A stretch of DNA of 64,000 bases, from positions 50,816 through 114,815 of IMG/VR virus record IMGVR_UViG_3300033072_001087; one strand, written 5' to 3'. The translations under genes were made by a program, and so were the position numbers. Numbering within the stretch: position 1 is the stretch's first letter; every line of letters starts with the position of its first letter. Below are positions 5,807-50,402 of the stretch, in pieces. The stretch is from a virus. Lineage: Duplodnaviria; Heunggongvirae; Uroviricota; Caudoviricetes. The notes under the pieces are model-generated. The model saw only the letters and a list, made by a program, of their open reading frames with translations. It ran no database searches and was not told the origin of the DNA.

Positions 5807-7105
5807 GTGAAAAAATACAAAGTTACGGAACGCAAGATCACCGATTACCAGCCTGACCCAACAAATCCGAATTTGGGTTCTGAGGAGGGATTGGCATTCA
5901 TAGAAAAGAGCTTGCGTGAAGTCGGCGGTGGGAGATCGTTGGTTGCGGACGAGAAAGACATTCTTGTTGCCGGAAATAAGACGCAGGAAGCTGCGGTCAA
6001 TGCGGGGATTACCGATGTCATTGAGATCGAGACTGAAGGGGATGTACTGATCGTTCACAAGCGGCGCGATTGGGACGCAGAACAATTGAACGGCGAAGCG
6101 CGACGCTATACGTTTCTCGACAATCGCGCATCCGAATTGTCGATGCGTTGGAATCCCGAACAGGTCAAACTGAATCTCGACGCTGGTATGAAACTGACAG
6201 ATGTGTTTGATCCGTTGACGCTCAAAAAGCTCATGAATAGCATCACCGGCGAAAACAGCGGTGCGGATCCGAACCGCACATCGAAAGGGCAGGTGGATAA
6301 AGCCGAGCAGATCCGCGCAAAGTGGAATGTCGAGAGCGGACAGGTCTGGCAAATTCCAAGCAAGTTCCGCGATGGGGCAGTGCATCGCGTGATGTGCGGA
6401 GACAGTGCGCAAACGGCGGATGTAGAAAAACTGATGCAAGGGATTATCCCCGATTTGTCGGTCACGTCGCCGCCCTATGCGGTAGGCAAAGACTACGAAG
6501 GCGCAACGCTGCAGGACTGGCGCGCGATTATCGCCGGAGTCTTCGGGGTTATGAGCGCGTGGGGGAATATCTGGTTTGTCAATTTGGGCGATCAAAAGAT
6601 CGGCGATGATGGCTTTGAGCATCACACCTACGGTGAGATGGTCGATCATTTTGAACGATCTTACGGATACAAGATTCTCACCACGCGTATCTGGAAGAAG
6701 GATGCCGCGTGGCAAGCCGCGCCGTACTGGAATACGACCTACAAGGCGGTTGATGAATTTGAGTATCTTGGTGTCTTTGCCAAAGACAAACCTAAGCACA
6801 TCATTCGTGTCGAAGGGCAGGAATACAACGACTGGGCAATACGCGGCGTTTGGGATATTCCATCGGTCCGCGCCAATACGCTGCATTCCGCACAGTTCCC
6901 GGTTGAAATTCCAATCCGTGCTATCCGGTTGTACACCGATTTTGGGGGGACGGTTCACGATCCGTTTGGCGGAAGCGGGACGACATTGGAAGCCGCCGAA
7001 CGATTGGGAAGAACCGCCTATCTGATGGAAAAGCAGCCGCATTACGCGGCAGTCATTTTAGACCGTGCGGAGAGCATGGGACTGGAGCCGAAATGCGATG
7101 AGTGA
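5807..7105 (+). CDS. ParB-like nuclease domain fused to an N4/N6 DNA methyltransferase.
   Basis: N-terminal ParB-like region. Methyltransferase motif IV SPPY (VTSPPYAVGKDY) and motif I HDPFGGSGTT. GTG start with a gagg RBS. Confidence 0.8.
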   Translation: MKKYKVTERKITDYQPDPTNPNLGSEEGLAFIEKSLREVGGGRSLVADEKDILVAGNKTQEAAVNAGITDVIEIETEGDVLIVHKRRDWDAEQLNGEARRYTFLDNRASELSMRWNPEQVKLNLDAGMKLTDVFDPLTLKKLMNSITGENSGADPNRTSKGQVDKAEQIRAKWNVESGQVWQIPSKFRDGAVHRVMCGDSAQTADVEKLMQGIIPDLSVTSPPYAVGKDYEGATLQDWRAIIAGVFGVMSAWGNIWFVNLGDQKIGDDGFEHHTYGEMVDHFERSYGYKILTTRIWKKDAAWQAAPYWNTTYKAVDEFEYLGVFAKDKPKHIIRVEGQEYNDWAIRGVWDIPSVRANTLHSAQFPVEIPIRAIRLYTDFGGTVHDPFGGSGTTLEAAERLGRTAYLMEKQPHYAAVILDRAESMGLEPKCDE

Positions 7106-10375: not shown

Positions 10376-10926
10376 GTGCAAGCGCGTTAGAGCAGACATT
10401 CTCGTTGTACTGGCAGACGCATTATCCCGATGCGCCGCAGCCGCGACGAGAATACCTCTTCCATCCACAGATGGATTATCGTTTCGATTTTGCGTGGCGC
10501 GATCATTTGGTCGCGCTTGAGATTCAGGGCGGCGCGTTCACAGGCGGTAAGCACGGACGCGGCAACGGGCTAACTTCCGATTTCAAGAAAAATAATGCCG
10601 CTATTGCGTTGGGCTGGCGCATTATCTACGCCTCAAGCCCAATGCTGCGTGGCGTTGCAATTACCGAACTCGGCGAGATTATCGCAGATCTGGTTTGGAC
10701 TCCCTTCTCAATTGCTGATTTGGATCGTTCGCGTTGGACAGCCGTCATTCGCAATCTTAAGCCTAAAGACAGCGAGATGATGCGGGGAATTTGCGTTCAA
10801 CGCGTGAGTGCAGGTAAGTACACTGTTGAGAAAAATGGACTCAACCGGGTGTTTACCAAAAAGAAGCTCAAGCTGCACGAGCTTCAAAGCGGCGTATTGG
10901 ACTATATACTAGGCGATCAACCATGA
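10372..10926 (+). CDS. DUF559 / Vsr-like PD-(D/E)xK endonuclease-domain protein.
   Basis: YRFDFAWRDHLVALEIQGG resembles the DUF559 core (RxDF...LaIEvDG). Confidence 0.4.
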   Translation: MSASALEQTFSLYWQTHYPDAPQPRREYLFHPQMDYRFDFAWRDHLVALEIQGGAFTGGKHGRGNGLTSDFKKNNAAIALGWRIIYASSPMLRGVAITELGEIIADLVWTPFSIADLDRSRWTAVIRNLKPKDSEMMRGICVQRVSAGKYTVEKNGLNRVFTKKKLKLHELQSGVLDYILGDQP

Positions 10927-12122
10927 AAATCCTCTTCTACACCCCGACAGTCGGGCGCGGCGGCGTACATCGCGTCGTGGAAACCGTCTTGGCGCAAATT
11001 GTCAAACAGTATCCACAGCACACCTATCATGCTTTAGGGCAGCGCTACAACGAAGTTGGCGATAAAGTCAAATATCCGTGTGCGCTTACACAGATTCGCC
11101 CGGTCAAGAAGCTGCCAGATCACCCGGAACAATTCAAGTTCTTACTCGACAACGCGGACGTGTTTTATCAGCACTTAGCCGAAATTGCGCCCAAGTACGA
11201 TCTGATTTACGCGCCGTCGATCTGGTGGGGGCTTCCGAAAGGGGAGTGGGAGATCACTACGCCGTTGGTTGCGACTATCCCCGATTTCGCTTTCGACATC
11301 ATGAATATGGGGTCGATTGCGCAGCACTTTCGATCGGTGATCCGAAAACTTGGCGAATTCAGCAACACACTCGTCGTCCACAGCCGCTATTGGCAGCAGC
11401 ACGCGCAGCAAACCTACGGCACTCAAAACATCGAAGTTATCGAACATACGCGTGATTTCCTGAGTAAATCGTTCGATTACTCGTTCGCGGAAGGCGTACG
11501 GGTAAGAGAGAAATACGGGCTGCCGAACGAATATGTCTTGGCGTTTCATTGCTATGGACACAAAGACCCGATCACGATTTTGCACGGGCAGTTGTATGCG
11601 CGTTCGCGCTCGCCGTATGTGCCGCCATTGGTGATCGCCGGACTTGAAACCGAACAATACGTAGAGGGCGCGCCCATAAAAGGCGGAGCCGAGTCTCACG
11701 TACATGAGGTTCGACGAGCTATTCGCGAGATTAAGGCGACGCTTGGGCGCGACTTGTGGATCCTTGGCAAGTTACCGGATGAGGATATTGGCGGCTTATA
11801 CGCGATGGCGATGTGTGCGGTTTCCGCGTCGGTCTCGGAGGGCGACTTGCCGGGAACTGCGTTTGAGGCAATTGAGTCGCGCACGCCGTTCATTTGTTCC
11901 GATTTTCCGATTTTCACCGAAAAGCTGGGTGAAGACTGCGCGTGGATTTTCCCGCGCCGCAATGCGAACAAGTACGGGCAAGCGCTGATCGAGTGCGTCG
12001 AAAATCGCGAAGAAGCGCTTCGCCGTGTCAACAATGCACTAGAGCGTACCGGTAAGCGCTCGGTAAAAGACGTGGCAGCCGAGTACATGACTCTATTTGA
12101 AAAGGCGGTCAGTGATGTATAG
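10923..12122 (+). CDS. Glycosyltransferase family 1 (GT4-type).
   Basis: N-terminal MKILFYTPTVGRGGVHRVV (GT4 N-domain) and C-terminal E..GTAFEAIESRTPFICSD (E-x7-E-like) motif. Confidence 0.75.
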   Translation: MKILFYTPTVGRGGVHRVVETVLAQIVKQYPQHTYHALGQRYNEVGDKVKYPCALTQIRPVKKLPDHPEQFKFLLDNADVFYQHLAEIAPKYDLIYAPSIWWGLPKGEWEITTPLVATIPDFAFDIMNMGSIAQHFRSVIRKLGEFSNTLVVHSRYWQQHAQQTYGTQNIEVIEHTRDFLSKSFDYSFAEGVRVREKYGLPNEYVLAFHCYGHKDPITILHGQLYARSRSPYVPPLVIAGLETEQYVEGAPIKGGAESHVHEVRRAIREIKATLGRDLWILGKLPDEDIGGLYAMAMCAVSASVSEGDLPGTAFEAIESRTPFICSDFPIFTEKLGEDCAWIFPRRNANKYGQALIECVENREEALRRVNNALERTGKRSVKDVAAEYMTLFEKAVSDV

Positions 12123-13092
12123 GGTAGCGGTTACAGGCGTCGGCGGCGGCTGTGGACAGGCGATTGTCAAGGCGCTGCGCATGTCGAAACTCCCGTTGGA
12201 AATTTTTAAGGTAGACATCACCCCATTATCGGCTGGATTGTTTTTCAGTGATGCAGGTTTAAGCGCGGTGCTTCCCGCGCCGGAAAAGTCGCTGACGGAG
12301 TGGGAACAGTTCATCGACGAGTTCGGCATTGATGCGATCATTCCGGGTTCGGATCACGATTTGCTGCCGTTGTCGATCGCCTTCTCGCGGTCGGTCGCGT
12401 TGGTAGCAAAACCATCGTTTGTTCGGATCGCGAATGATAAGGCTGAAACATATCGTACCGGTATTTATGCAATTCCGTCGATTTACGCGGCCGCAAATAC
12501 CGATGACATCCTTGCCTTTGCCGAAGCGCACGGCTTTCCGCTGATCGTTAAACCGCGCAACGGAATGACATCGCGCGGTGTTTCGCTGGTCAACGATCTA
12601 GAGGAACTGCTGTTTTACTGGAAGCACACAGCCAATCCGATTGTACAAAAGTACATCGACGGCGATGAATACACTTGCGCGGTCTATTTTTCACGTAGAG
12701 GCGAACCGGTCGCATTCTTCCAGATGCGGCGCTGGTTATATGCAGGATCGACTTATCGCGCGGAAGTGACGCATCACCCCATTGTTGAAGAATTTATGCG
12801 CTGCACGGCGGTTGCTTTGCAGCGGTATCGTCCGACCGGCCCAGTGAATTTGCAAATGCGATTGGACGCCAATAACACACCACATCTACTGGAAATCAAT
12901 GCGCGTTGTTCGGGTTCGACCGCAATGCGCGCGCATTTTGGCTACAACGAGCCAGAGATGCTGCTGCGTGAATATTGCGCAGGTGAAGACATCGAAATGC
13001 CAAAAACGCGAGATGGGGTCGCGATGCGTTATTGGGATGAATTGTACGTTGATAACGCGACGATCGAGGACATCAAAGGATTCAACCGGTGA
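12115..13092 (+). CDS. ATP-grasp domain enzyme.
   Basis: FPLIVKPRNGMTSRGVSLV and LEINARCSGST are ATP-grasp signatures. The ATG at 12115 overlaps the GT stop codon. Confidence 0.7.
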   Translation: MYRVAVTGVGGGCGQAIVKALRMSKLPLEIFKVDITPLSAGLFFSDAGLSAVLPAPEKSLTEWEQFIDEFGIDAIIPGSDHDLLPLSIAFSRSVALVAKPSFVRIANDKAETYRTGIYAIPSIYAAANTDDILAFAEAHGFPLIVKPRNGMTSRGVSLVNDLEELLFYWKHTANPIVQKYIDGDEYTCAVYFSRRGEPVAFFQMRRWLYAGSTYRAEVTHHPIVEEFMRCTAVALQRYRPTGPVNLQMRLDANNTPHLLEINARCSGSTAMRAHFGYNEPEMLLREYCAGEDIEMPKTRDGVAMRYWDELYVDNATIEDIKGFNR

Positions 13093-13994
13093 AAATCTTA
13101 GTGACAGGCGGAGCCGGGTACGTTGGCTCTGTATTAATTGGGGATATGCTCAATCTTGGTTACTCGGTGGTCTGTTATGATCGACTTGATCACGGAATAT
13201 CCCCGATTGCGGGGTATCTAGAACACCCGAATTTTGCGCTAATTGTCGATGACATCCGGCGCGGCTACGCGCTGCAGCAAGCGCTTTTGAAAGCGGATGC
13301 GGTCATTCATTTGGCTGCGCTGGTGGGGTATCCGATTTGTGAGCAATCACCGAAGGAGGCCGAAGGCATTAACCTTTTCGGATCGATCATGCTCAATGAG
13401 TCGCGATCGAAACATCAGCGTGTAATCTACGCGAGTACCGAGAGCGTTTACGGTGGCGTCAAAAATGCCGATAATGGCATATTGCACGAGTGGATGCAGA
13501 CCGATCCGCATTCAGTGTATGCGCGCACGAAATTGGACTCGGAATCCCCATTTTTGGATAAGGGGAATGCGGTTGTGTTTCGTTTCGCCACCGGATATGG
13601 GTTATCACCAAGAATGCGCGCTGATACGATGGTCAATGATTTTACCCGCCAGATTGTAAGGTCTGGAACGCTGTCGTTGTATGAGCCAAATGTATTGCGG
13701 TCGTTTGTTCATGTGCGGCAAATGGCGCGTGTTCTCCTACATGGACTTGGTGCATTTGAGGGATTATACAACGTTAGCGAGATCGGACTGCGCAAAGAAG
13801 CGTTGGTCAAGAAAATAATCGATCAAGTCGGCTACGGGCATGTAACCTATGGAGAGGGTGCGGATCTAGAGATGCGCGACTACTTCATGGATTGCAGCAG
13901 ACTACGCGAAAGTGGATTTGAGTTTCAGCCGATCCACATGGAATCGGCGATTAAAGCGATGGCGAGGTACTTTACACATGATACCGCTTGCTAA
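13089..13994 (+). CDS. NAD-dependent epimerase/dehydratase (SDR family).
   Basis: MKILVTGGAGYVGSVL Rossmann motif plus a YxxxK-type region. GTGA overlap with the upstream gene. Confidence 0.8.
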   Translation: MKILVTGGAGYVGSVLIGDMLNLGYSVVCYDRLDHGISPIAGYLEHPNFALIVDDIRRGYALQQALLKADAVIHLAALVGYPICEQSPKEAEGINLFGSIMLNESRSKHQRVIYASTESVYGGVKNADNGILHEWMQTDPHSVYARTKLDSESPFLDKGNAVVFRFATGYGLSPRMRADTMVNDFTRQIVRSGTLSLYEPNVLRSFVHVRQMARVLLHGLGAFEGLYNVSEIGLRKEALVKKIIDQVGYGHVTYGEGADLEMRDYFMDCSRLRESGFEFQPIHMESAIKAMARYFTHDTAC

Positions 13995-15063
13995 TCCAGA
14001 CATCACCAAAGTCGAACGCCGTCATGTCCTGCAGGCGCTTTGGTCAAACACCATTTCCGGCACGGGTCCACAAATTCGTGAATTTGAGGCGGCATGGGAA
14101 CAGCGCAGCGGGCGCAAACGCGCTTTCGCGGTGAGCAATGGCACCGTAGCGCTGGAGATCGCACTGCAAGCCATCGGCATTGGACCGGGGGATGAAGTAA
14201 TTGTTCCAGCATTGACATTCGCCGCGCCTGCTGCGGCGGTGCGCAGACTTGGAGCGACTCCGGTGTTTGCGGATGTTGGGGTGGATGCTGTAATCAACGT
14301 GCTATCGGTCGCCGAGCGAATTACCGAAAAGACGCGCGCAATCATCGCCGTCGATACGCTTGGCAACATCCCTGACTACAATGCGTTGATGGATCTGGCC
14401 TTCTATTACGGACTGACCGTCATCGAAGACGCGGCTGAAGCACATGGATCGAGTCGTTTGGGAAAACTCAGCGGAACCTTCGGACACATCTCGACCTTTT
14501 CTTTCCACGCCAACAAAACCATCACGACGGGCGAGGGCGGCATGATTCTACTAGACGACGACGACACGATCGGAGTCATTGAATTGATCCGCAATCATGG
14601 CATGAGAAAGCCATATATCCATGAAGTCGTCGGAACAAACGGTCGAATGACGAGCCTGACTGCGGCCCTCGGTATCGGGCAAATGCAGCGCTGGGACGAA
14701 ATCATGCAGCGTCGCAAAGAGATCGATCGCGCTTATGATGCTGTGCTACCAAGCGTGTATTATTCACTGCCCATATCGCCTAATACTTCCAGAATTGTGT
14801 GGCTGAAAACGATTTGCGTTCGGGATGAACATCACGACGGATTGCGCGATCGAATCGTCCACCGACTGCGGGAAGCGCAAATCGACGCGCGCGCCATCTG
14901 GCCGCCGTTGACCGGGCTGAAACCGTATCAGTCGGAGCCGCTGCCGGTTGCTGAAATCGTGAGCGGGAATTCGTTCTGGCTGCCCACCTATAATACATTG
15001 GGTGATGATGATATTTACCGGATTGGAGAGGAATTGAGGATCGCTTATGAACGAGAGAATTGA
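13978..15063 (+). CDS. DegT/DnrJ/EryC1/StrS-family PLP-dependent sugar aminotransferase.
   Basis: Motifs VIEDAAEAHGS and FSFHANKTITTGEGG (the PLP lysine region) are typical of DegT aminotransferases. Confidence 0.8.
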   Translation: MIPLANPDITKVERRHVLQALWSNTISGTGPQIREFEAAWEQRSGRKRAFAVSNGTVALEIALQAIGIGPGDEVIVPALTFAAPAAAVRRLGATPVFADVGVDAVINVLSVAERITEKTRAIIAVDTLGNIPDYNALMDLAFYYGLTVIEDAAEAHGSSRLGKLSGTFGHISTFSFHANKTITTGEGGMILLDDDDTIGVIELIRNHGMRKPYIHEVVGTNGRMTSLTAALGIGQMQRWDEIMQRRKEIDRAYDAVLPSVYYSLPISPNTSRIVWLKTICVRDEHHDGLRDRIVHRLREAQIDARAIWPPLTGLKPYQSEPLPVAEIVSGNSFWLPTYNTLGDDDIYRIGEELRIAYEREN

Positions 15064-15232
15064 TGCGCCAATGCGTGAAGTTCGCTGTCCGACGTGCAAC
15101 CATCTGTTGTTTTACGCAGATTCGTTGTCAAAACCGTACATCGAAATCAAGTGTTCATCGTGCAAGCATATCATCGCCGTTAATGGCGAAAATCAGGTCG
15201 TCAAGGTTGTGACGAAAAGAGTTGCGGAGTAG
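15047..15232 (+). CDS. Mu Com-like zinc-ribbon protein.
   Basis: VRCPTCNHLLFYADSLSKPYIEIKCSSCKHIIAV closely parallels Mu Com (RCKNCNKLLFKADSFDHIEIRCPRCKRHII). Confidence 0.6.
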   Translation: MNERIDAPMREVRCPTCNHLLFYADSLSKPYIEIKCSSCKHIIAVNGENQVVKVVTKRVAE

Positions 15233-15281
15233 CCTATTGCTATTCTGCAAAATAGTCTTACAATTGAGAAAGAATTAATTA

Positions 15282-15320
15282 GACGCCGTGAGCGCAATTC
15301 GTCTCACGGCGTCTTTTATT
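15282..15320 (+). terminator. Rho-independent terminator.
   Basis: Perfect 11-bp stem gacgccgtgag/ctcacggcgtc with a 10-nt loop, followed by TTTTATTT. Confidence 0.7.
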
Positions 15321-15331
15321 TGGAGAAAAGG

Positions 15332-16837
15332 ATGGAAACCGTCTATCTCAAGCTACCGGATGCGCTTAAGGAAGCGCTTGGAAGCATCAGCGGTGTGAAT
15401 GCTGAGAATTTGACGCTTCCAATCGCGACCATCCTAGACGACGCAGACGAAAACGCCGTCAGCGAAGCGCTGGATTATTTTGCGCAAGTCAGTGGCAAAG
15501 TCACAGGCAAAATCTCGTCACTCAGTCGTAATTTTGGCGATGAACAAGATCGGGTTGTAGTTGAACTTTTTTCAGAGAACTATAACTTTGGATACTTAGA
15601 TTTTGTTTTCTGGCTCTACGACATTAATGGTGCGGTAAGCAATCGGTTAAGTATCGAACTGATGACCATCGCGAAATCAGAGAGTATGCCGGGTGCAAGC
15701 TTATCGACGGAAATGTACGAATTTCGCGAATTGGTCTATCGCGACACAACGCGTGATTTAGCGGTCAAGGTACTCGGAGTAGGGGAGATGGCGAACGCGA
15801 AGCCAATGCTGGTCACAGAGAATCTACAGAAAAAAGACGGGCGATTGATGGTTGAAATGCGCGTCCGTGCGCAGTATGACCCATCGGCGTATCCCAAAAT
15901 CGCGCTGCCGTCCGATATTGTCGAAGGCAGCGGCGAAATGTTCATTACGCTGCCGGTGGCGGCGTTCGATGCGGAGTCCTTGAACGGACACACGTACCTT
16001 GAAAGTTCCGTCCGCGACATGCTCAACCAAATTAACGATCGCCGACCGGAATCCAACTGGGGGCATATCCCCGATCACGAGTTCTCGACGCGTTACGGCG
16101 CGCCACCAGTTCGCTGGCTGGCAGCGGTTGAGCAGGGCGGGACGATTTTTGCGCGCGGTCGCGTGTTGACGGACGAAGCGCGAACCTACTATGCCCGCGC
16201 TGACATGGACAAGGCGCGTGTTGGCACGAGTTTGTTTGCGTGGGTCGAAATGGAAGATGACCGCGTAATGCACATGGATCTGATCACGATTGATCTGGCG
16301 GATCCGGCACGAGTGGGTGTTCCGTTGACGGCGGCGCGTGCGGCTGTCAATGTTACCGAGATGAGTAAAGTCAAACAAGAGGCAGGAGCGGAAGAAATGC
16401 TGGAAGCGAAAGTGCGCGAACTGCTTGCGATTGACGAGTCTGCCGATGTCGAAAAGGAATTGGCGGCTGTAATCGAGTCAAGCAAGCTGGCACAGGAACA
16501 CGAAAAGGCGTTGGTTGAACTTGAGAACGAAAAAGTCGAATTGCAGTCGCAAATTGACGCGCTGAAGGAACAGGGCGCGGAATGGGCGAAGCAGTTTGTG
16601 GCGCTTTCGATCCCGGTTGAATTGGCGCGACAAACAGTTCTCGATCTGATGGATTTTTCGAAGATCGAAAACGTCGAACAAGCAAAGGAACAGCTGAAGG
16701 CGATCAAATCGCGTGCAGATGTTATTGCGCTCATCAAGGCTGGCGTGGTTGAAGAGTCCGGCCCTCCACAAAAACGCGGCACTGACGATGGTAGTGCTGG
16801 CGGCAAGTTCTTCAAGATTCCAGAAAGAGAGGAATAG
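15332..16837 (+). CDS. Head morphogenesis protein with a long C-terminal coiled coil (putative scaffold or protease-scaffold fusion).
   Basis: Sits between the portal region and the decoration/capsid genes. C-terminal heptad-rich segment (VRELLAIDESADVEKELAAVIESSKLAQEHEKALVELENEKVELQSQIDALKEQ). ATG at 15332 with a ggagaaaagg RBS. Confidence 0.4.
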   Translation: METVYLKLPDALKEALGSISGVNAENLTLPIATILDDADENAVSEALDYFAQVSGKVTGKISSLSRNFGDEQDRVVVELFSENYNFGYLDFVFWLYDINGAVSNRLSIELMTIAKSESMPGASLSTEMYEFRELVYRDTTRDLAVKVLGVGEMANAKPMLVTENLQKKDGRLMVEMRVRAQYDPSAYPKIALPSDIVEGSGEMFITLPVAAFDAESLNGHTYLESSVRDMLNQINDRRPESNWGHIPDHEFSTRYGAPPVRWLAAVEQGGTIFARGRVLTDEARTYYARADMDKARVGTSLFAWVEMEDDRVMHMDLITIDLADPARVGVPLTAARAAVNVTEMSKVKQEAGAEEMLEAKVRELLAIDESADVEKELAAVIESSKLAQEHEKALVELENEKVELQSQIDALKEQGAEWAKQFVALSIPVELARQTVLDLMDFSKIENVEQAKEQLKAIKSRADVIALIKAGVVEESGPPQKRGTDDGSAGGKFFKIPEREE

Positions 16838-16840
16838 TTC

Positions 16841-17218
16841 ATGGCTGGAAATCTGACGTACTTTGAAAGCGACGGCAAGTCAGTCACGGTCGATCTGACC
16901 TCGACAGTGCCGAAAGATCAGATCGCTTATGTTAGCGGTTTCTTGGGCATCGCGCTTCAATCCGGCGACAGCGGCGACTCGATTGCGCTGAATGTCGATC
17001 ATCGCGAGTATCAGTTTGTCGTGCCATCGGGCTTGTCGGTGTCGAAGGGCGATATTGTCTACATTGACACCGCCGATCTCACCGGCCATCTTCCAGACGA
17101 CACGGCATGGTCAACATCGGCTGGCTCTGGGAAAATTCGTTTGTGCAAGGCGACCTCGGCGAAGGACGCCAACAACATCGTTACAGGCATTCTTCTTGCA
17201 GGAGAACACGCGTCATGA
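16841..17218 (+). CDS. DUF2190-like head decoration protein.
   Basis: 125 aa. Pattern Y..DGK.V...S.G...VSGF.GIAL.SGDSGDSIAL resembles DUF2190 proteins found between protease and capsid genes. Confidence 0.5.
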   Translation: MAGNLTYFESDGKSVTVDLTSTVPKDQIAYVSGFLGIALQSGDSGDSIALNVDHREYQFVVPSGLSVSKGDIVYIDTADLTGHLPDDTAWSTSAGSGKIRLCKATSAKDANNIVTGILLAGEHAS

Positions 17219-18231
17219 AGATTATTTCTAAAGAGCAACTGATCAAGAGCCGCGACGTTGCTGCCGTAAGCGGCGAAGTCGATCTGAGAAAAGAACTCAG
17301 AATCGTTGAAAATTCGCCGGGGCGGACGGTGGTCGAGTTTGTCGGCACCGACGACTTCCGCGCCGAATGGTATGATCGTCAGCGCTACGAAGTTGACGCC
17401 GGACGCGACAGCGAACCGCTGCTGTATCAGCCGCTCTACCAAGAGACGGTTGATGCGTCGCTCCCACGCAACGTCACGGTCTTTCGTATCGGGCCGGGCG
17501 CTGTGGTCTTCGAAGAAATCTACGAAGGCGGCGAAGTCAAGTTCGTGACTGTCAATCAGTCCAACTATTCGGTTCAGATGCACCACTATGCGGTCGGTCT
17601 CGAATACGGGAAAGACCTCGTGATGTACAACGAACTGTGGAACTTGCCGATCATCGAACGTCAGGCGGGGATCGCGTTTAACGCGCTCAAGAATCACATC
17701 CACCTGAATCCGTTCATCAGCTATTCCTATGGCGCTGCCAATCAGACCGCCGCCAACACAGGCGGGGATTCGATTGTCGAGAATTACCTGCGCACGCTGG
17801 AAGACGCTGTGACGAACGCGACGGAAGATACAACCAATCCGCGCCGTGGCCCGTACTGGATTTTGTGCAGTACCGCCAATTTGTTCACGCTAGAACGCGC
17901 TTTGACGCGTGTGCCGCAAGAAGGCTTCACGCTGCAGTCGTCAGTGATGAACATGGTTCAGGGCATCATCGCCTACAACGGCTGGAGCGGAATGCGCGGA
18001 CACAAGGCAACCAGCTACAGCGGCGTCAGCGCCAACAAGTTGTACCTGATCGATGCGTCGGACAAGCTGCGTAATCTGCGCTCATTCGTCAAGCAGGATC
18101 TTGCGCCGACGATGGGCAACGAAGACGTGAGCCGCTTCATTTTGGAACAGGTCGTGTGGGACACGTACTTCACGATGTACGCCGACATTCCGGCGACGAC
18201 GGAAGAAGTGACGCTGCCAACAACGGCGTAA
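17215..18231 (+). CDS. Major capsid protein (HK97-like).
   Basis: 339-aa ORF immediately after the decoration-like gene, at the canonical position. No motif-level proof. Confidence 0.55.
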   Translation: MKIISKEQLIKSRDVAAVSGEVDLRKELRIVENSPGRTVVEFVGTDDFRAEWYDRQRYEVDAGRDSEPLLYQPLYQETVDASLPRNVTVFRIGPGAVVFEEIYEGGEVKFVTVNQSNYSVQMHHYAVGLEYGKDLVMYNELWNLPIIERQAGIAFNALKNHIHLNPFISYSYGAANQTAANTGGDSIVENYLRTLEDAVTNATEDTTNPRRGPYWILCSTANLFTLERALTRVPQEGFTLQSSVMNMVQGIIAYNGWSGMRGHKATSYSGVSANKLYLIDASDKLRNLRSFVKQDLAPTMGNEDVSRFILEQVVWDTYFTMYADIPATTEEVTLPTTA

Positions 18232-18233
18232 TC

Positions 18234-19247
18234 ATGAACATCTTCGCGCACACATGGGAACTTGCCGACAGCTATGGAAGGCTTGCCATTGAAACCGCAG
18301 ACGCCATTGAGCGCGTCTGCGGCGTGCAGGTTAATCGGGTCGGCGAACACAAACTTAACAAGCCAATCAAGCCCATGTTTGGCGGGGTTCTGACGGCGTA
18401 TCCGACGCAGTTTTGGAAGTACGGCCCGTTGTCGGAATTTGGAACACGAGTTGCGCTGACGATGTTTGAGTCAGACGCGCTGCCGATGGATTGGATCGAT
18501 CCGTTAAATGGTTGCGATACGGTAATTGTGCCGTCTAAGTGGCTGGTGGACGTATTTAAGTCCAGCGGGGTAACGAAGCCGGTATACGCGGAATCCATCG
18601 GAGTGAGCAGCGCGTTTCGATATGTCAAACGCAAGTCGAGTCCGGTGTTTAAGTTCTTGGCGATCGGCGATCACGCGGGTCGTAAGGGCGTGCATGATGT
18701 CCTATTCGAGTTCGTCCGGGCTTTCGGGGATCGGGATGATGTGCATCTATTCATCAAGACGCGCCACGCAACAATGGCGGGGTTTATGAACAAAAACATC
18801 ACGTTGATCAACGAAGAACTGAACGACGCGGATATGGCACGGCTGTATTGGGAATGTGACTGCATGGTGTTCCCGACGAAAGGTGAAGGGTTCGGGCTTC
18901 CGCCGCGCGAGTTTGCGGCGACCGGTGGAATCGCGCTGGTCACGAATTGGGGCGGCACGGCAGATGACATCGAACGTTGGGGAATACCGTTGCCATACAC
19001 GCTGGAAAGCGCGTGGGCGGGCGGCAAATTCGAAGGTATTGGGCGTTGGGCGCAGGTAGATCGCGTCCATTTGCGCACGCTGATGCAGTGGGTAGCGGCA
19101 ATGCCGTATGCTGCACGAATGGCGCTTGGCGCGGCATACGCTGAGAATGTCGCAGAGATGTACACATGGGATCGGTTCGGCAAGCGCGTTTACGAGATAT
19201 GGAGTGAGGCAAATGCCAACAGCCACACAGTACGCGCGGGTGCGTAG
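18234..19247 (+). CDS. Glycosyltransferase family 1 (GT4-type), second copy.
   Basis: FPTKGEGFGLPPREFAATGGIALVTNWGG is the GT4 C-terminal EX7E-type motif. Starts 3 nt after the capsid gene stop. Confidence 0.65.
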   Translation: MNIFAHTWELADSYGRLAIETADAIERVCGVQVNRVGEHKLNKPIKPMFGGVLTAYPTQFWKYGPLSEFGTRVALTMFESDALPMDWIDPLNGCDTVIVPSKWLVDVFKSSGVTKPVYAESIGVSSAFRYVKRKSSPVFKFLAIGDHAGRKGVHDVLFEFVRAFGDRDDVHLFIKTRHATMAGFMNKNITLINEELNDADMARLYWECDCMVFPTKGEGFGLPPREFAATGGIALVTNWGGTADDIERWGIPLPYTLESAWAGGKFEGIGRWAQVDRVHLRTLMQWVAAMPYAARMALGAAYAENVAEMYTWDRFGKRVYEIWSEANANSHTVRAGA

Positions 19248-19623
19248 CGACCTCAAGTGGAGCGCCTTAACCGACGCGCAGATCGATGATTGGTATGCAC
19301 GCGCCGAAGCGCGTTATGACACGCTCACCGACGCGGTTGAGGCGCAGGTGCGAATTTACGGCGTCCGTGAACTTATCATGGAAGCCGCAAAGAATGTCGA
19401 TTACAAGCAGGGGCAAAGTTCGGAGAGCCTATCGCAGCAGGTAGTGAACCTGTCCAAATACGCGCTGCCGATCTTCAAAAACGACTTGCTTGAAGCGCTT
19501 GAAGCCGGGTATCCGAACGCGATGTGGGGAGCGCTGCGCCGTCCGCGTTCAACTATTGTCGAGTACCCGGAGGATATGTTCGATTATCTGACGGATCCGG
19601 TGTTGTTAACGAGTGTGTCATGA
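19213..19623 (+). CDS. Putative head-tail connector protein.
   Basis: Position in the structural operon. ggagtgagg RBS. Confidence 0.35.
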   Translation: MPTATQYARVRSDLKWSALTDAQIDDWYARAEARYDTLTDAVEAQVRIYGVRELIMEAAKNVDYKQGQSSESLSQQVVNLSKYALPIFKNDLLEALEAGYPNAMWGALRRPRSTIVEYPEDMFDYLTDPVLLTSVS

Positions 19624-22244: not shown

Positions 22245-22267
22245 GAGGGCGATCATTGATCGCCCTC
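22245..22267 (+). promoter_or_regulatory. Stem-loop (10-bp stem gagggcgatc/gatcgccctc) between the chaperone ORFs and the tape measure.
   Basis: Inverted repeat read from the sequence, followed by ttcgtgtt. Confidence 0.4.
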
Positions 22268-39636: not shown

Positions 39637-40170
39637 ATGAAAAGGTTCATGCAGCGTTACGCCGAAGGACGCACTTGGTTCGCTTTGTTTACGCGTGATA
39701 GCGACAGCCCACAGCCCTTTGCCATTGTTGATATACGCGACTCTGCGCTCTTGCGTAACTTCTTTTCGCGTGCATTTTCGCAGTATAACCACCGACTGAT
39801 TTCAGATTCGCTGATGCACTACATTGAACAGAGTGAATGGGATCGGCAAGGCTATTTTGACGCCATTATCCGCGTCGGTCGCCGCCACCCAAGTCGATCA
39901 CAAATGTTCCTACTGTCCTATGCGGCAACCCATACGGGATGGTTTCGCTTTCCCGAAGAAATGCGCGCCGACGTTTCCACTAAGAGCCTGTTTGTCTGCA
40001 CGGAACGGGGTTGGATGGCATGGAACGATGGCAACTATCGCATTACATCGGAAGGGCGTCGCGTCCTAAGAAATGCAATCCTAGATGAACGAGATCGAGA
40101 AAAATCAAGCCGGGATAAACGCCGCGCTCGGCAAAATCGCCAACGCGGCGGCGCAGGCGACAGCACTTGA
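39637..40170 (+). CDS. Hypothetical protein with basic C-terminal tail.
   Basis: 177-aa ORF. C-terminus RDKRRARQNRQRGG. Confidence 0.35.
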   Translation: MKRFMQRYAEGRTWFALFTRDSDSPQPFAIVDIRDSALLRNFFSRAFSQYNHRLISDSLMHYIEQSEWDRQGYFDAIIRVGRRHPSRSQMFLLSYAATHTGWFRFPEEMRADVSTKSLFVCTERGWMAWNDGNYRITSEGRRVLRNAILDERDREKSSRDKRRARQNRQRGGAGDST

Positions 40171-41080
40171 CACCTACAAATTAGACCTTGCCCCAAATAC
40201 ATTGGATCGTCAACGGCGCGATTTGTCGCTCTTTGCGGATTACTTGATGGGAAAAGGGATGCGCGTCGGCGATCTGTTCAACAGCGCCGAGGCGTGGCGT
40301 GGTATTACGTGGGGATTGGTCAAGGGGTTCGGGTTGTGGATGCAGCACAAGGGATACGCGTTGGGTTCGGTTGCGGTTAGATTTGCAACCGTCAAGCGCT
40401 ATGCCGCGCTTGCTGTACAATCTGGAATAATCGACGCAAATGAGGGCGCATTGATTAAATCCTTGCGCCCCTTTACGAACACACGCAATGTCGATGCAAA
40501 ACGCGCCAGAACACGTCTGGGCGCGAAAAAAGCCCATTCTACAGACTTGACGTTAGAGCAGCGAAAAACCCTCAAAGAACGCGCCTCCTCTACCCCACAA
40601 AGCGCGTGTTACGCCCTGCTCATGTGTTTACTTCTTGATCACGGTCTTAGAGTATCGGAGGTCATTCTGCTTACTGACGCGAACGTAGACACTACCCTGT
40701 GGACTCTCAGTTTCTATCGTCCAAAGGTTGATCGTCACGATATTCACCGCATGACGCAAGACACAATCCATGCTTACTTAGCCTACAAACCGTTTATAAT
40801 AGAAGGCGAGAAGCTGCTGCGTCAATCAGAACGCGGCGGCGCATTAGGCAAGCCCGGATTAACGCGTGGCGGCGTCGAACAAATCGTCAAACGACTTGGG
40901 AAAAACATCGGGGTCCCATCGCTCTCGCCCCATGATTGTCGGCATTCTTGGGCAACAGAATACGAGAAGAAACACACGCCGTTTGAACTGCGCGACGCAG
41001 GGGGCTGGAACAGCTTGGATATGCCAAATCGCTATGTCAACCGAAAACGAATCAGCAATCAAGGAGAGGACTTGGAATAA
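40085..41080 (+). CDS. Tyrosine recombinase / phage integrase.
   Basis: C-terminal catalytic region HDCRHSWATEY...GGWNSLDMPNRYV (R..H..R..Y). N-terminal SAM-like core-binding region. The true start may be downstream of 40085. Confidence 0.8.
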   Translation: MNEIEKNQAGINAALGKIANAAAQATALDTYKLDLAPNTLDRQRRDLSLFADYLMGKGMRVGDLFNSAEAWRGITWGLVKGFGLWMQHKGYALGSVAVRFATVKRYAALAVQSGIIDANEGALIKSLRPFTNTRNVDAKRARTRLGAKKAHSTDLTLEQRKTLKERASSTPQSACYALLMCLLLDHGLRVSEVILLTDANVDTTLWTLSFYRPKVDRHDIHRMTQDTIHAYLAYKPFIIEGEKLLRQSERGGALGKPGLTRGGVEQIVKRLGKNIGVPSLSPHDCRHSWATEYEKKHTPFELRDAGGWNSLDMPNRYVNRKRISNQGEDLE

Positions 41081-42483: not shown

Positions 42484-43257
42484 TCAAGCAAAGTTATCTG
42501 CGAACATTGGCAGCGTGTAGGCAACGGATAGCCGCTTACGTGCTGTTACCGAGTGAACTGGCGAATTATCCCCAAGAATGTACCGTCGTCCCGTGTTCCG
42601 CGCAGCGACGCCGGTAGTGCCGCTGCCGCACGTTGGGTCTAAGACGACATCGCCAGATAGCGTATAGGTTCGTATAAGATACTCGATCAAGCTAACAGGC
42701 TTTTGCGTCGGATGCAGCCCGGTTTCGTTCGCAAATTGATGAACGGTCTTCGGGTATCTCCACCCCTCGTTGACTGTACCGAGCAAATCGAACTTGCCGT
42801 AGTTGGTCGTCTTGCCTTTCGTCTTTGCCTTGTACGGCGTTCCAGCTTCCATTTGCGGGAAATATACCGGTTCTTTCCGAGAGAAAATCAGAATGTTCTC
42901 GTGTGAGCGAAGCGGACGGCGGTTCGCATCCAAGAAGCCGCTTCCGCGCGGCTTCTCCCAAATCATCTCGTAGCGAAATAAGTCGAGTGCGCTCATAACC
43001 AACATACTCGTGAATGGTTGAGATCCGGTGAGCGCAATTACGCCGTCCGACTTGATGATGCGGCGGAAACGCCGCCACATCGGTTCAAGCGGAATCAGCG
43101 TATCCCAACTGTTTTGCGTTACCGCGTAGGGTAAATCTGCGAAGATGAAATCGACAACGACTCCCGCCTCGTAAATCCAGTCGCACAGCGAGAACAGGTC
43201 CAGAAAATGAACCGCGTTGAATAGATCTGAGGCCGTCCGCGCTGGCAGCAGGTTCAC
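42484..43257 (-). CDS. DNA methyltransferase (N4/N6 class).
   Basis: FADLPY-type motif IV and VLDPTCGSGTTGVAA motif I. Confidence 0.7.
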   Translation of the reverse strand: MNLLPARTASDLFNAVHFLDLFSLCDWIYEAGVVVDFIFADLPYAVTQNSWDTLIPLEPMWRRFRRIIKSDGVIALTGSQPFTSMLVMSALDLFRYEMIWEKPRGSGFLDANRRPLRSHENILIFSRKEPVYFPQMEAGTPYKAKTKGKTTNYGKFDLLGTVNEGWRYPKTVHQFANETGLHPTQKPVSLIEYLIRTYTLSGDVVLDPTCGSGTTGVAARNTGRRYILGDNSPVHSVTARKRLSVAYTLPMFADNFA

Positions 43258-43266
43258 GATAGCGTC

Positions 43267-44397
43267 CTAACGGTTGAGGCTCATCGGCATGATCACGCAA
43301 ACGAGTCCGTCATAGCTTTCTGGGCGAATCACCACCGGATGCGCCGCGCCGTGAGTCTCCAGAATAATGCGCTCGCTGTCGATGATATTCAGCACGTCGA
43401 TCAAGTAGCGAATGTTATACGCCACTTCCAGCGCTTCCCCTTCGACTCCGGCGTCGATCATGCCCTCACTATCACCGCGTTCGGCGCTGCGTCCCAAGAT
43501 CGATAACTGTCCCGGTTCACTGGGGCTGGCAGGCGGTTGTGCGATGAATCGCGCGCTGAAGTTGTTGTCGCGCGCAAAAATTTCGGCTCGCTTGCATTGA
43601 TTGAGCAGTTCATCGGCATATACCGTTATCGATGTACTGTAGGTTTTTGGAACAATAGCGTTGAAGTCTGGGAATTTACCGCTGATCAATTGCGACGTAA
43701 TGATCGTGCTTTCGTAATAAAACGCCACACCCTCTCGTTCATCGAGCATGGATAGTCCAAGCGGCCGCTCTTCATCGGTAATCACACGCGCTACTTCCGC
43801 TAACGTTCTTGCGGGAATGATCATCGGTTCACTTTCAGCGGACTCGTCAATTTGACTTGTCCGAACTGACAGACGATACCCATCCGCTGAAGTCATTGTC
43901 AGCGCGTTATTGCCGAACTGAGTATAGATGCCACCCAAAACAGGGCGAGAGTCTTCCTTCGCCGCAGCAAAGACTGTTTGCGTAATCATCTGCTTGAATA
44001 CGCCGGATGGTAGTTGTACGGACGCCCCTTTTGTTTCAGGAATCGGAGGGAATTCTGACGCCGCAATGCCCTTGATGTTCGATTTGGTCGTACCACAGCG
44101 GACATTAACCGTTTGCGTTTGCGCGTCAAGTATTAGATCGACTCGTTCAGATGACAGGTTATTGACTAATTCAGCGAATGTCTTAGCGGGAAGCGTAATC
44201 GCGCCGGGAACATCGATTTTCGCACCGACATAGGTTGTGATGCTCATTTCGAGGTTCGTTGCGACGAGTTTGAGGCGGGCATCTTCGGTCATCAACAGCA
44301 CGTTCGCCAAGACCGGCAGAGTCGGACGCGACTCGACAGCTTTGGCGACAATACTTAATCCTCTGGCGAGCTGATCTTGCAAGATTGAAACACGCAT
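43267..44397 (-). CDS. dnaN: DNA polymerase III beta subunit (sliding clamp).
   Basis: 376 aa. N-terminus MRVSILQDQLARGLSIVAKAV...PVLANVLL and the three-domain clamp pattern. Confidence 0.8.
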   Translation of the reverse strand: MRVSILQDQLARGLSIVAKAVESRPTLPVLANVLLMTEDARLKLVATNLEMSITTYVGAKIDVPGAITLPAKTFAELVNNLSSERVDLILDAQTQTVNVRCGTTKSNIKGIAASEFPPIPETKGASVQLPSGVFKQMITQTVFAAAKEDSRPVLGGIYTQFGNNALTMTSADGYRLSVRTSQIDESAESEPMIIPARTLAEVARVITDEERPLGLSMLDEREGVAFYYESTIITSQLISGKFPDFNAIVPKTYSTSITVYADELLNQCKRAEIFARDNNFSARFIAQPPASPSEPGQLSILGRSAERGDSEGMIDAGVEGEALEVAYNIRYLIDVLNIIDSERIILETHGAAHPVVIRPESYDGLVCVIMPMSLNR

Positions 44398-45242
44398 TAC
44401 GTTGACTCCTCATTGATTGTTAGGTTCGCGAACATCGGTAGTGTTCGGATTGGATCGTAATTCATCCACAGCGATTCCATCTTCTGCTTTGGCGTCCCTG
44501 TGCCGCTAACTGTATTTACGGCAAAGTCCCTGCGCGTATACCCGTTTAAAGCGGAATACAACGCATTATCGTAGCCGCTCAAAATGACATATGCCTTCTT
44601 GATCGCGTTTAAAGCGGCGACCAACCGTTCGTGATGCGCATCATCAACATCATTTTCATACCGCGCTTCGGTCCGCGTCGATAAAACATATGGCGGATCA
44701 AGATAAATCAACGTCCGTTCGCGGTCAAATTCGCCGATCAGTTCCAGTGCGTCGCGGTTGGTCACAATGACCGTCGATAGCCGCGCGTGTAATTCCGGCA
44801 TTTCATCGACCGATGACAGGAAATCGCTGACCGACTTGCTCGTATTACGGCGAACGGTTGTGTTGATTGAGAACCCCCCAATGCCATTATGCCGTGTCCG
44901 ATTGACGTACCAGAAACGGAATGCGCGCTCAACATCATCCAATTCGCCGCGCAGCGATACGCGGTACTCGTTCGATGTGCTTTCGTCATAGAGCGCTAAC
45001 TGACACAGGCGATAAAATTCCGCGAACAACGCCTCATCGCGCAGCACTTTGAATAAGGCGTAGACATTCCGATTCACGTCGTTGTAGAGTTCAATCGGAA
45101 CGCGCGGCTTGTTGAGCAGAACAACGCCGCTTCCGCCATACGCATCCACGAACGTGTCGTATAAGGACTCGTCAGGGAAATAAGACAACAATTGCGCGAT
45201 CATGCCGCCTTTTCCGCCAAAATACTTGACCGGTGCGTTCAT
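44397..45242 (-). CDS. dam: DNA adenine methyltransferase (Dam-like).
   Basis: KYFGGKGGM (motif I region), DAYGGSG, YLDPPYVLSTR (DPPY). Start placed at MNAPVKYFGGKG. Confidence 0.75.
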   Translation of the reverse strand: MNAPVKYFGGKGGMIAQLLSYFPDESLYDTFVDAYGGSGVVLLNKPRVPIELYNDVNRNVYALFKVLRDEALFAEFYRLCQLALYDESTSNEYRVSLRGELDDVERAFRFWYVNRTRHNGIGGFSINTTVRRNTSKSVSDFLSSVDEMPELHARLSTVIVTNRDALELIGEFDRERTLIYLDPPYVLSTRTEARYENDVDDAHHERLVAALNAIKKAYVILSGYDNALYSALNGYTRRDFAVNTVSGTGTPKQKMESLWMNYDPIRTLPMFANLTINEEST

Positions 45243-45562
45243 TTTGTATCTAGTAATTTTGGCATGTACAGCGCGTGTTTGCCCATCACCCATCCATCCG
45301 GCATCGCGAAGATTTTTATCTTAATCGCCCAATCCGCAAACGCTTTTGCCTCAAGCAGCATCTTGATCTTGCCATCATCAAGGTTGGTTGCAGTTTGTGC
45401 TGCAAACAAGAGAAGCAAGCAGTACGATGCGCGCCAATAGACCATTTCGCGCCACGCTTTAAACCAGCGGTAAAGCAAGTACAATGGCACAAGAAATATC
45501 GCGAAGAACCACCCAACATCCGCGTTCATGAAGGCTGTCCAATCGATAATGCTGGCGTTCAC
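45239..45562 (-). CDS. Small membrane protein.
   Basis: Hydrophobic segment DVGWFFAIFLVPLYLLY. Confidence 0.3.
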   Translation of the reverse strand: MNASIIDWTAFMNADVGWFFAIFLVPLYLLYRWFKAWREMVYWRASYCLLLLFAAQTATNLDDGKIKMLLEAKAFADWAIKIKIFAMPDGWVMGKHALYMPKLLDTK

Positions 45563-45960
45563 TCGATCGATTCCTTTGCGTAATAGCGTGCGATCATCGC
45601 GTCCGTCTTACCAGTCTCATCGATGATACCGGCGCGTTTGCCGTATATCATGTGATATGGCTTACGCGTACTCAAATCAAGATAGACCGGTGTATTCCGC
45701 GCGCCGAAATAGTCGCCGTAGCCGATAATCGGACCTTGCTCATGTTTCTTGAATCGCTTCGCCGCTGGCTGCGTCGATGCTTCAATGGCCACCTGCTTGA
45801 CCGCCTCGATAAAATCGGGGTGTCGTAATGTGCGATAGACCGACTCGATGACGTTTTCCCAGACAATCGGGATTTGTTCGCCCCGCTCATCGTATGCCGC
45901 ACCGACAATACCCAATCCGATCGCCAATTTCATTGTGTTTACAGCGTCATGATGCTTCAT
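45559..45960 (-). CDS. Hypothetical protein. Start moved to MKHHD to avoid overlap with the ligase.
   Basis: ORF. A possible H..HD..D HD-like motif, but too weak to call. Confidence 0.25.
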   Translation of the reverse strand: MKHHDAVNTMKLAIGLGIVGAAYDERGEQIPIVWENVIESVYRTLRHPDFIEAVKQVAIEASTQPAAKRFKKHEQGPIIGYGDYFGARNTPVYLDLSTRKPYHMIYGKRAGIIDETGKTDAMIARYYAKESIE

Positions 45961-50143: not shown

Positions 50144-50190
50144 GCCTCGTTTCTGGCGGATGCGTAGTGCATCCGCCAGTGCGTGTGTTC

Positions 50191-50391: not shown

Positions 50392-50402
50392 GACAGACTC
50401 CT

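Follow-up and report, generated by a model that had tools for sequence, protein, structure and literature searches.

In an uncultured tailed phage, the gene that directly follows the major capsid gene encodes, as we can say with high confidence, an active glycosyltransferase of the GT-B fold that is a member of the head operon. The gene lies at 18234-19247 on the plus strand of a 64,000-nucleotide (nt) stretch of DNA, hereafter the window, which covers positions 50,816 to 114,815 of the IMG/VR virus record IMGVR_UViG_3300033072_001087 (Caudoviricetes), and its place behind the capsid gene is kept in nearly all of the related loci that were counted. The reading that we favour, and that we regard as evenly poised, is that this core enzyme of the head module puts the first sugar on the capsid protein or on the decoration protein, while variable neighbouring genes elaborate the glycan. 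The source lineage is that of a probably temperate, uncultured siphophage.

The enzyme, its fold, and its catalytic residues

The open reading frame (ORF) was confirmed to be real, and its product has 337 residues. Its scores against two Pfam families fall just under the cut-offs, namely 26.2 against 26.4 bits for Glycos_transf_1 (PF00534) and 25.9 against 27 bits for Glyco_trans_1_4 (PF13692), and precomputed matches to these families are present on most of its homologues. The product also matches PHROG 2170, annotated as "glycosyltransferase" (3.7e-23) and labelled in PHROGs as an auxiliary metabolic gene or moron, and it has a weak NCBIfam match to phosphatidylglycerol GlcN synthase.

Regarding the fold, a model built by AlphaFold2 with 36 homologues as input reached a predicted local distance difference test score of 94.7 and a predicted template modelling (pTM) score of 0.91. 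It consists of two Rossmann-like halves with alternating strands and helices, followed by long C-terminal helices, i.e., the GT-B fold. The Foldseek comparison with the Protein Data Bank (PDB) gave 380 matches at E<=1e-3, of which the top 50 are all GT-B enzymes. The best match is the chlorovirus NY-2A enzyme B736L (3oy2, E=1e-15, TM 0.78), the second is the GT20-type pseudo-glycosyltransferase VldE, and next come the GT4 enzymes BshA, MshA, PimA, and GlgM; the protein Ser-O-GlcNAc transferases SdgB and GtfC (7ec1, 9hu9) are also among the matches. A profile of the family, compared with the PDB sequences, again placed B736L first (E=3.8e-14), with an alignment that runs through a family-specific segment after the EX7E motif (AW...GxG.WA.PD). 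Among viral proteins, the structural neighbours of the enzyme include glycosyltransferases from giant viruses, lipothrixviruses, and uncultured Caudovirales. The solved structures nearest to it in the Foldseek comparison are, with few exceptions, retaining GT4 enzymes, and by analogy with them the GT4-like protein probably has a retaining mechanism.

In a whole-library profile search the first places went to giant proteins, which were rejected as closest relatives, their scores being sums over 3-6 domains. These proteins (P0121, P0122, P0125, and others) have 1,000-5,000 residues and carry 3-6 tandem GT4-like domains together with GT2 domains and TPR repeats.

The EX7E pair, on whose presence in an alignment the original prediction had let its case depend, is found as E218 and E226 of the segment E218-GFGLPPR-E226, and E218, G219, G221, P224, R225, and E226 are invariant across 36 homologues with 40-58% identity. 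Also invariant in this alignment is the pair R150-K151, at the start of the C-terminal Rossmann domain; as in GT4 enzymes generally, this RK motif would take part in binding the donor phosphate. The same prediction had called the enzyme a second GT4, with reference to another glycosyltransferase encoded further upstream (Table 1). Its GT4-like fold is borne out, whereas the word "second" is loose, because the two glycosyltransferases of the window have no detectable similarity (BLASTP E=0.2) and hence are not paralogues.

The neighbours of the enzyme in the head operon

The gene upstream had been taken for the major capsid gene, and rightly so: the major capsid protein (MCP) that it encodes matches, over residues 33-333, the MCP gp49 of phage phiCD508 (PDB 9gay_A, E=1.1e-40) as well as phrog_3116 (4e-55), and the gene before it encodes a decoration protein that resembles phiCD508 gp48 (PDB 9gay_C, E=1.8e-9) and scores over the cut-off of Phage_cement_2 (28.3 bits). 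The start of the MCP is the ATG of position 17215, which shares the letters ATGA with the stop codon of the gene before and is supported by relatives; the start at 17107, given by the mechanical ORF 17107-18231, was rejected as too early. The capsid stop codon, TAA, occupies 18229-18231 and the ATG of the glycosyltransferase begins at 18234, so that the start predicted at 3 nt after the capsid stop is correct and leaves a gap of 2 nt.

The first gene of the operon encodes a 505-residue protein, probably a fusion of prohead protease and scaffold, which gave a weak match to phrog_10 and no significant match among solved structures. Its C-terminal sequence is coiled-coil-like, the gene is kept upstream of the cement and MCP genes in relatives, and its position is that of the scaffold gp46 and protease gp47 genes of phiCD508. 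On the other side of the glycosyltransferase gene, and overlapping its 3' end by 35 nt as in relatives, begins the gene for a 136-residue protein with no family match, which from its position is probably the head-tail adaptor.

In phiCD508 the order of the genes is portal gp45, scaffold gp46, protease gp47, decoration gp48, MCP gp49, and adaptor gp50, with no glycosyltransferase, and the capsid, with the gp49 MCP and the trimeric gp48 decoration protein, was solved by cryo-electron microscopy (PDB 9gay) (PMC11948020). The Clostridioides difficile myophages of the phiCD508/phiCD27 type have homologous MCP and decoration proteins and the same gene order as the window, except that the adaptor gp50 directly follows the MCP, whereas in the window the glycosyltransferase sits between the MCP and the presumed adaptor. 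The window MCP is ~31% identical to that of phiCD508, and no MCP of a cultured phage exceeds 31%. Since phiCD508 has no gene for the enzyme, this gene is an insertion specific to the metagenomic lineage.

Conservation of the arrangement

More than 500 homologues of the glycosyltransferase were found in a collection of 5.8 billion proteins, and all except the query come from metagenomes or metagenome-assembled genomes (MAGs). For the comparison of loci, 79 viral-contig loci and 26 genome loci were fetched with the glycosyltransferase as the seed, and all of their ORFs were scored with hidden Markov models from six seed modules. Synteny was counted over the 68 loci in which the match to the glycosyltransferase is strong (E<1e-90) and the DNA upstream is long enough. 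The scaffold/protease-like, cement, MCP, and glycosyltransferase genes lie on one strand in 65 of these 68 loci, and the MCP gene is mostly no more than 100 nt upstream of the enzyme; the set is not fully de-replicated, and the loci that hold all four genes and differ from one another in the glycosyltransferase sequence number 45.

The enzymes of the related loci are 35-58% identical to that of the window. Five homologues with 40-58% identity all have the same order, i.e., a protein of 510-576 residues, a cement protein of ~125 residues, the MCP, the glycosyltransferase, and then connector and tail genes, and in the five homologue loci that were looked up the glycosyltransferase starts 3-4 nt past the end of the MCP gene. 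The 2-nt gap of the window also recurs in loci L001-L004 and L007. Variations on the arrangement occur: L012 (4540-7065) has two tandem copies of the glycosyltransferase, and in L039 (3525-7050) the MCP is separated from the glycosyltransferase by two inserted genes, one for a sugar C-methyltransferase and one for a GT2-methyltransferase fusion.

Among loci seeded on the MCP, with MCP identity of at least 42% and at least ~860 nt of downstream DNA, the enzyme is always downstream, either adjacent or 0.4-2.1 kb away, with one exception: in L113/L173, one phage from two samples, it is found ~9.5 kb further along the same contig. MCP-seeded loci with 30-37% MCP identity are mixed for the presence of the enzyme. 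In loci of the L147 type (L147 5951-8495), the enzyme is a more divergent copy of 380 residues that lies 1.4-2.1 kb downstream of the MCP; the three small ORFs in between match no family and, to judge by position, may be connector genes.

That 65 of the 68 loci keep this placement is a far stronger argument for a head-linked function than the adjacency of two genes in a single genome would be, and conserved synteny makes such a function of the glycosyltransferase a well-supported prediction.

Signals for expression

The head operon is preceded, within a gap of 257 nt, by a promoter-like site (15237-15264) that is the sole one on the plus strand between 14.5 and 21.4 kb, and a terminator-like hairpin (22245-22267) stands downstream of the head, connector, and tail-tube genes, after the tail-chaperone region; both were identified by match to consensus only. 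At the junction of the MCP and glycosyltransferase genes a consensus scan found neither a sigma-70-like promoter nor an intrinsic-terminator-like site. The glycosyltransferase gene is within the head operon, with no promoter or terminator of its own, and in this sense is expressed with the structural genes.

Clear Shine-Dalgarno sequences are present for the cement, MCP, adaptor, and tail tube genes, that of the adaptor gene being strong (ggagtgagg), and the start of the glycosyltransferase has none (caacaacggcgtaatcATG). The 2-nt gap, along with the missing Shine-Dalgarno sequence, suggests that the enzyme may be translated through termination-reinitiation at the capsid stop by ribosomes coming from the capsid gene. 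Such reinitiation would hold the output of enzyme at a small, fixed fraction of that of the capsid protein, which would suit an abundant substrate. The statement that the enzyme is co-translated with head proteins stands in part: the gene is co-transcribed with theirs and probably translationally coupled, but literal co-translation is the wrong term.

Variable glycan genes around a constant enzyme

Upstream of the head operon lies an amino-sugar cassette with the other glycosyltransferase, an ATP-grasp ligase, an epimerase/dehydratase, and an aminotransferase (Table 1). Among the compared loci this cassette is limited to the closest relatives, L001 and L003, and in other relatives the interval between the portal and the head operon holds a GT2 enzyme, methyltransferases, a GT2-methyltransferase fusion, or nothing. 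The cassette is, for this reason, an accessory add-on and the post-capsid enzyme the constant core, and the head module is a hotspot for glycan genes of which the post-capsid enzyme is the constant element. The original idea of enzyme and cassette as one fixed two-step pathway is weakened by this distribution, although successive addition of sugars in this particular phage is possible.

Two further features of this interval are recorded here. At the position where EX7E is expected, the upstream enzyme (10923-12122) appears to have SEGDLPGTAFE, in which eight residues separate the glutamates and the context differs, as judged by eye from a pairwise alignment. Just ahead of the head operon, at 15047-15232 (plus strand), there is a gene for a zinc-ribbon protein of 56-61 residues, which is also present in L001 (6793-6963) and L003 (6783-6956) and scores below threshold against Mu Com (PF10122; 21.5 bits, cut-off 22.9). 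Com of Mu activates the translation of a modification gene, and by analogy the zinc-ribbon protein might regulate head and glycan genes.

Comparison with known systems

Virion glycosylation by phage-encoded enzymes is established for the mycobacteriophages Che8, Corndog, and Myrna, with capsid and tail-tube proteins as the targets (Freeman et al. 2023, Cell Host Microbe 31:1216, as cited in PMC11256854, PMC11600133, and PMC12363180). Like the phage of the window, these phages (Che8 gp108-110, Corndog gp38, Myrna) have glycosyltransferases of their own, sometimes accompanied by methyltransferases, and their glycan genes vary between relatives. The cases differ in that glycosylation is proven for the mycobacteriophages, whereas here it is read from genes. 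In addition, Che8 gp108-110 have Pfam matches of GT-A type (GT2 with methyltransferase, GT2, and GT25), in contrast to GT-B here, and the Che8 glycosyltransferase genes are at the far right end of the genome, away from the capsid gene, rather than directly behind it. The GT2-methyltransferase fusions of L007 and L039 have a domain composition like that of Che8 gp108, with no resemblance in sequence. By analogy, the process is probably the same as in the mycobacteriophages, i.e., self-glycosylation of the virion, and what would be new is the enzyme fold, the core, capsid-coupled genomics, and the uncultured host range.

A tblastn search with the glycosyltransferase gave no mycobacteriophage match. 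The sole homologues in cultured phages found in this way belong to phages of Streptomyces (e.g., Comrade gp19/gp20) and Rhodococcus (Peregrin gp60), with 27-33% identity over 57-77% of the protein, and their genes adjoin ribonucleotide reductase or endolysin genes, not capsid genes. For the Rhodococcus phages, virion glycosylation has been suggested by the authors (PMC13313380).

The closest solved structure by both profile and fold, chlorovirus B736L/PBCV-1 A546L (GT4, 3OY2/3OY7), has nevertheless only ~16% identity to the enzyme. The two are alike in being virus-encoded, and the chlorovirus glycosylates its own capsid protein; unlike the enzyme studied here, B736L comes from a giant virus of eukaryotes and is not linked to a capsid gene of the HK97 type. 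The bacterial enzymes SdgB and GtfA/GtfC, of the serine-rich adhesin systems, are GT-B/GT4 enzymes that, in the cytoplasm, add the first sugar directly to Ser/Thr residues of folded or repeat proteins. The structural matches to SdgB and GtfC are lower-ranked, with 13-15% identity, and the substrates of these systems are Ser-rich repeats, of which the capsid and decoration proteins here have none.

A proposed first sugar on the phage head: points for and against

Direct support exists for the fold and catalytic motifs of the enzyme, the capsid identity of its neighbour, the structure of the operon, and the conservation of the arrangement. The mechanism that we propose would build on these as follows. 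The glycosyltransferase gene would be transcribed together with the scaffold/protease-like, decoration, and capsid genes, and translated at a low level by ribosomes that end at the capsid stop and restart 2 nt on. The soluble enzyme would then move a sugar from a nucleotide-sugar, probably supplied by the host, onto the MCP or the decoration protein, and this first transfer would start a surface glycan on the phage head. Neighbouring genes would extend or diversify this glycan, namely the amino-sugar cassette and the upstream GT4-like enzyme in the window, and GT2 enzymes and methyltransferases in relatives. What we infer in this scheme is which acceptor and which donor the glycosyltransferase uses, in what order the sugars are added, and that translation of the enzyme is coupled to that of the capsid.

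The acceptor-side N-domain and the donor-side C-domain of the enzyme are equally conserved, with mean majority frequencies of 0.59 and 0.62, respectively. That the N-domain is conserved while the glycan genes nearby vary agrees with an acceptor that is itself conserved, for example a head protein. The conserved enzyme would in this case initiate the glycan on a conserved protein with a common nucleotide-sugar, and the variable genes would elaborate it. The MCP ends in …ATTEEVTLPTTA, and its last ~10 residues, (V/T)EE(I/V)T(L/W/F)P(T/S)(S/A) (window 18190-18228), are unusually conserved in more than 60 loci.

Several observations weigh against this reading. The C-terminal EEIT[WLF]P[TS][SA] of the MCP, considered as an acceptor signature, was rejected as it also occurs in the enzyme-less relatives L171-L181, and gp49 of phiCD508, a phage with no gene for the enzyme, has an aligned QEIS stretch and ends two residues later. 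Likewise, the Ser/Thr-rich loop AWSTSAGSGK of the decoration protein has a counterpart, TTTSASN, in gp48 of the enzyme-less phiCD508, and no sequence feature of the MCP or of the decoration protein was found to separate enzyme-bearing from enzyme-less phages. The capsid or decoration protein would be the acceptor in our proposal, but sequence and model evidence names none. Moreover, pairwise identities of the enzyme correlate weakly with those of the MCP in a mirror-tree comparison (r=0.46, rho=0.25), as opposed to 0.83 and 0.75 for MCP and cement protein, which argues that the enzyme is exchanged among related phages and is not tightly co-evolving with the capsid.

Most of the characterised GT4 enzymes among the Foldseek matches act on lipid, small-molecule, or glycan acceptors, not on proteins. 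Che8 gp108, the sole Che8 enzyme compared directly, aligns with the glycosyltransferase family with an hhalign probability of 0.2%; together with the GT-A-type Pfam matches of the Che8 enzymes, this makes the mycobacteriophage precedent an analogy and not a homology. As for B736L, it binds GDP-mannose, its acceptor is not known, and doubt has been cast on a part for it in the glycosylation of the capsid (PMC9614988).

A more far-reaching version of the proposal is put forward tentatively, and we think it somewhat doubtful. Capsid glycosylation would be ancestral, and obligatory for the assembly of the head, in a large uncultured temperate clade, apparently of Chloroflexota, and would be carried out by a capsid-slaved GT-B enzyme that would have an origin independent of the mycobacteriophage enzymes and share ancestry with the glycosyltransferases of giant and archaeal viruses. 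The enzyme would represent a new type of capsid-specific protein O-glycosyltransferase, and swappable cassettes would produce glycan "serotypes".

Alternative explanations

The enzyme could instead act late in infection on the host envelope, on a glycan, a lipid, or a polymer of the cell wall, and on no phage protein; the effect might be the masking of receptors, by which progeny would escape loss to debris, or the exclusion of superinfecting phages. This would agree with the mostly lipid-linked, membrane, and small-molecule acceptors of characterised GT4 enzymes (PimA, MshA, BshA, GlgM), with the weak NCBIfam match to phosphatidylglycerol GlcN synthase, and with a temperate phage (integrase at 40085-41080) that has relatives in large Chloroflexota MAG contigs. 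Genes for lysogenic conversion are normally variable morons with their own promoters; the glycosyltransferase gene, by contrast, belongs to the late head operon and stays at one position in 65 of 68 loci, with no flanking promoter- or terminator-like site and no Shine-Dalgarno sequence. The N-domain of the enzyme is near neutral (isoelectric point 7.8), and no basic membrane-binding surface was identified in it, although none was specifically sought. We therefore judge action on the host envelope to be unlikely.

The target could also be another virion protein, such as the tail tube, the connector, the fibres, or several of these, in which case the post-capsid place of the gene would mean late co-expression only. 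The enzymes of mycobacteriophages act on tail-tube proteins as well as on the capsid (PMC11600133, PMC12363180), the divergent copy of the L147-type loci comes 1.4-2.1 kb past the MCP, after three possible connector ORFs, and weak co-variation of enzyme and MCP is compatible with a target other than the MCP. The tightest and commonest linkage of the enzyme is nonetheless to the MCP, with gaps of 2-100 nt in most loci, and the tail-tube protein of the window has no conspicuous Ser/Thr-rich extension, which leaves this explanation rather improbable.

Much less probable is glycosylation of phage DNA, i.e., of hydroxymethyl-pyrimidines before or during packaging, as by the T4 glucosyltransferases and the 5hmC-glycan systems. 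The GT-B fold is possible in phage DNA glycosyltransferases (bioRxiv 10.1101/2023.12.21.572611), and the PurA/PurZ-like gene and the four DNA methyltransferases of the phage point to heavy investment in the modification of DNA. Yet among the ORFs scanned in the 64-kb window of the 114.8-kb contig there is no thymidylate-synthase-like hydroxymethylase, no TET/5mYOX protein, and no C5-cytosine methyltransferase, T4 beta-GT is outside the top 50 Foldseek PDB matches, and known DNA glycosyltransferases adjoin hydroxymethyl-pyrimidine enzymes, not head operons, whereas the neighbours here are capsid and connector genes.

Finally, a catalytically inactive protein with a glycosyltransferase fold, recruited as an assembly factor or minor head component, would suit a position between capsid and connector genes, the usual site of head-completion proteins, but is hardly credible, since a non-catalytic role is hard to reconcile with EX7E, RK, and many donor-site residues that are invariant over deep divergence.

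The phage, its host, and other genes of the window

The features on which the preceding sections rely are collected in Table 1.

Table 1. Features of the window, in order of position
Feature	Position	Strand	Basis
Accessory amino-sugar cassette	10923..15063	+	Pfam/NCBIfam family matches
GT4-like glycosyltransferase (cassette)	10923-12122	+	
ATP-grasp ligase (cassette)	12097-13092	+	
NAD-dependent epimerase/dehydratase (cassette)	13089-13994	+	
DegT/LegC/PseC-type aminotransferase (cassette)	13912-15063	+	
Promoter-like site, before head operon	15237..15264	+	consensus match only
First head-operon gene, 505 aa, probable prohead protease-scaffold fusion	15320..16837	+	position, weak phrog_10 match, sequence character
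Capsid decoration/cement protein, 125 aa	16841..17218	+	Pfam Phage_cement_2; 9gay_C
Major capsid protein (MCP), 338 aa; TAA 2 nt ahead of glycosyltransferase ATG	17215..18231	+	9gay_A; phrog_3116
GT-B-fold, GT4-like glycosyltransferase, 337 aa	18234..19247	+	ORF, family, AlphaFold2 (AF2) and Foldseek matches
R150-K151 motif, start of C-terminal Rossmann domain	18681..18686	+	invariant in homologue alignment
EX7E catalytic/donor-binding motif, E218-GFGLPPR-E226	18885..18911	+	sequence; invariance in 36 homologues
Next gene, 136 aa, probable head-tail adaptor (from position)	19213..19623	+	sequence, ORF list
Strong terminator-like hairpin, 10-pair stem, 7 G-C pairs	22245..22267	+	consensus match only

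When 20 kb of the structural region were compared with 50,697 phage genomes in a DNA search for near-identity, no match was found, which indicates that the phage has no cultured close relative. After the tail and lysis region, at 40085-41080 on the plus strand, there is a gene for a tyrosine integrase (Phage_integrase, 2.5e-14), and the phage is, in view of this gene, probably temperate. The homologues in binned genomes (L087-L095, L098, L099, L101) are mostly in Chloroflexota MAGs, assigned to Anaerolineae, Ardenticatenia, Aggregatilineales, and Litorilinea, and a few are in MAGs labelled Gammaproteobacteria or Pseudomonadales. Two of them lie in Chloroflexota MAG contigs that are 572 kb and 675 kb long and are thus suggestive of integrated prophages, with Chloroflexota as the likely host phylum.

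The window also holds four DNA methyltransferase genes, at 5807-7105 on the plus strand and at 42484-43257, 44397-45293, and 47026-47820 on the minus strand, three of the products belonging to the N6_N4_Mtase family and one to the D12/Dam class. At 53515-54663 (minus strand) there is a gene for an adenylosuccinate-synthetase-like protein of 382 residues (Pfam Adenylsucc_synt, 1.4e-49), which falls far under the NCBIfam cut-offs, with 153 against 402 bits for PurA and 64.5 against 300 bits for PurZ. From its sequence it could be a divergent PurZ-type enzyme; PurZ is a marker of 2-aminoadenine "Z" genomes. On the minus strand, 45947-47029 encodes a T4-type RNA ligase and 49625-50599 a polynucleotide kinase-phosphatase/HAD protein, and the two may form a pair for the repair of RNA (tRNA), directed against anticodon nucleases of the host. 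An SPFH/Band-7 protein of 456 residues, unusual for a phage, is encoded at 50403-51773 (minus strand), amid genes for replication and modification.

Implications

To our knowledge, self-glycosylation of phage particles was shown only recently and only in a few actinobacteriophages, in which it shields the virions from antibodies. If the reading favoured here is true, the capsid and enzyme genes, 2 nt apart, would form a compact and testable pair for the recognition of an HK97-fold protein by a GT-B enzyme, and the pair might be usable for the glyco-engineering of phage capsids. For annotation, a post-capsid GT-B gene in this lineage would have to be read as a core gene of the head module rather than as an auxiliary metabolic gene or moron. 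Virion glycosylation would be hard-wired into head assembly in a widespread lineage of environmental phages and, given the unrelated fold of the enzyme, would have arisen more than once and outside the context of animal immunity. In the sediments, sludge, and soils where these phages occur, its possible roles would include the stability of the particle, adhesion to matrix or sheath polysaccharides, and the evasion of traps on the host surface.

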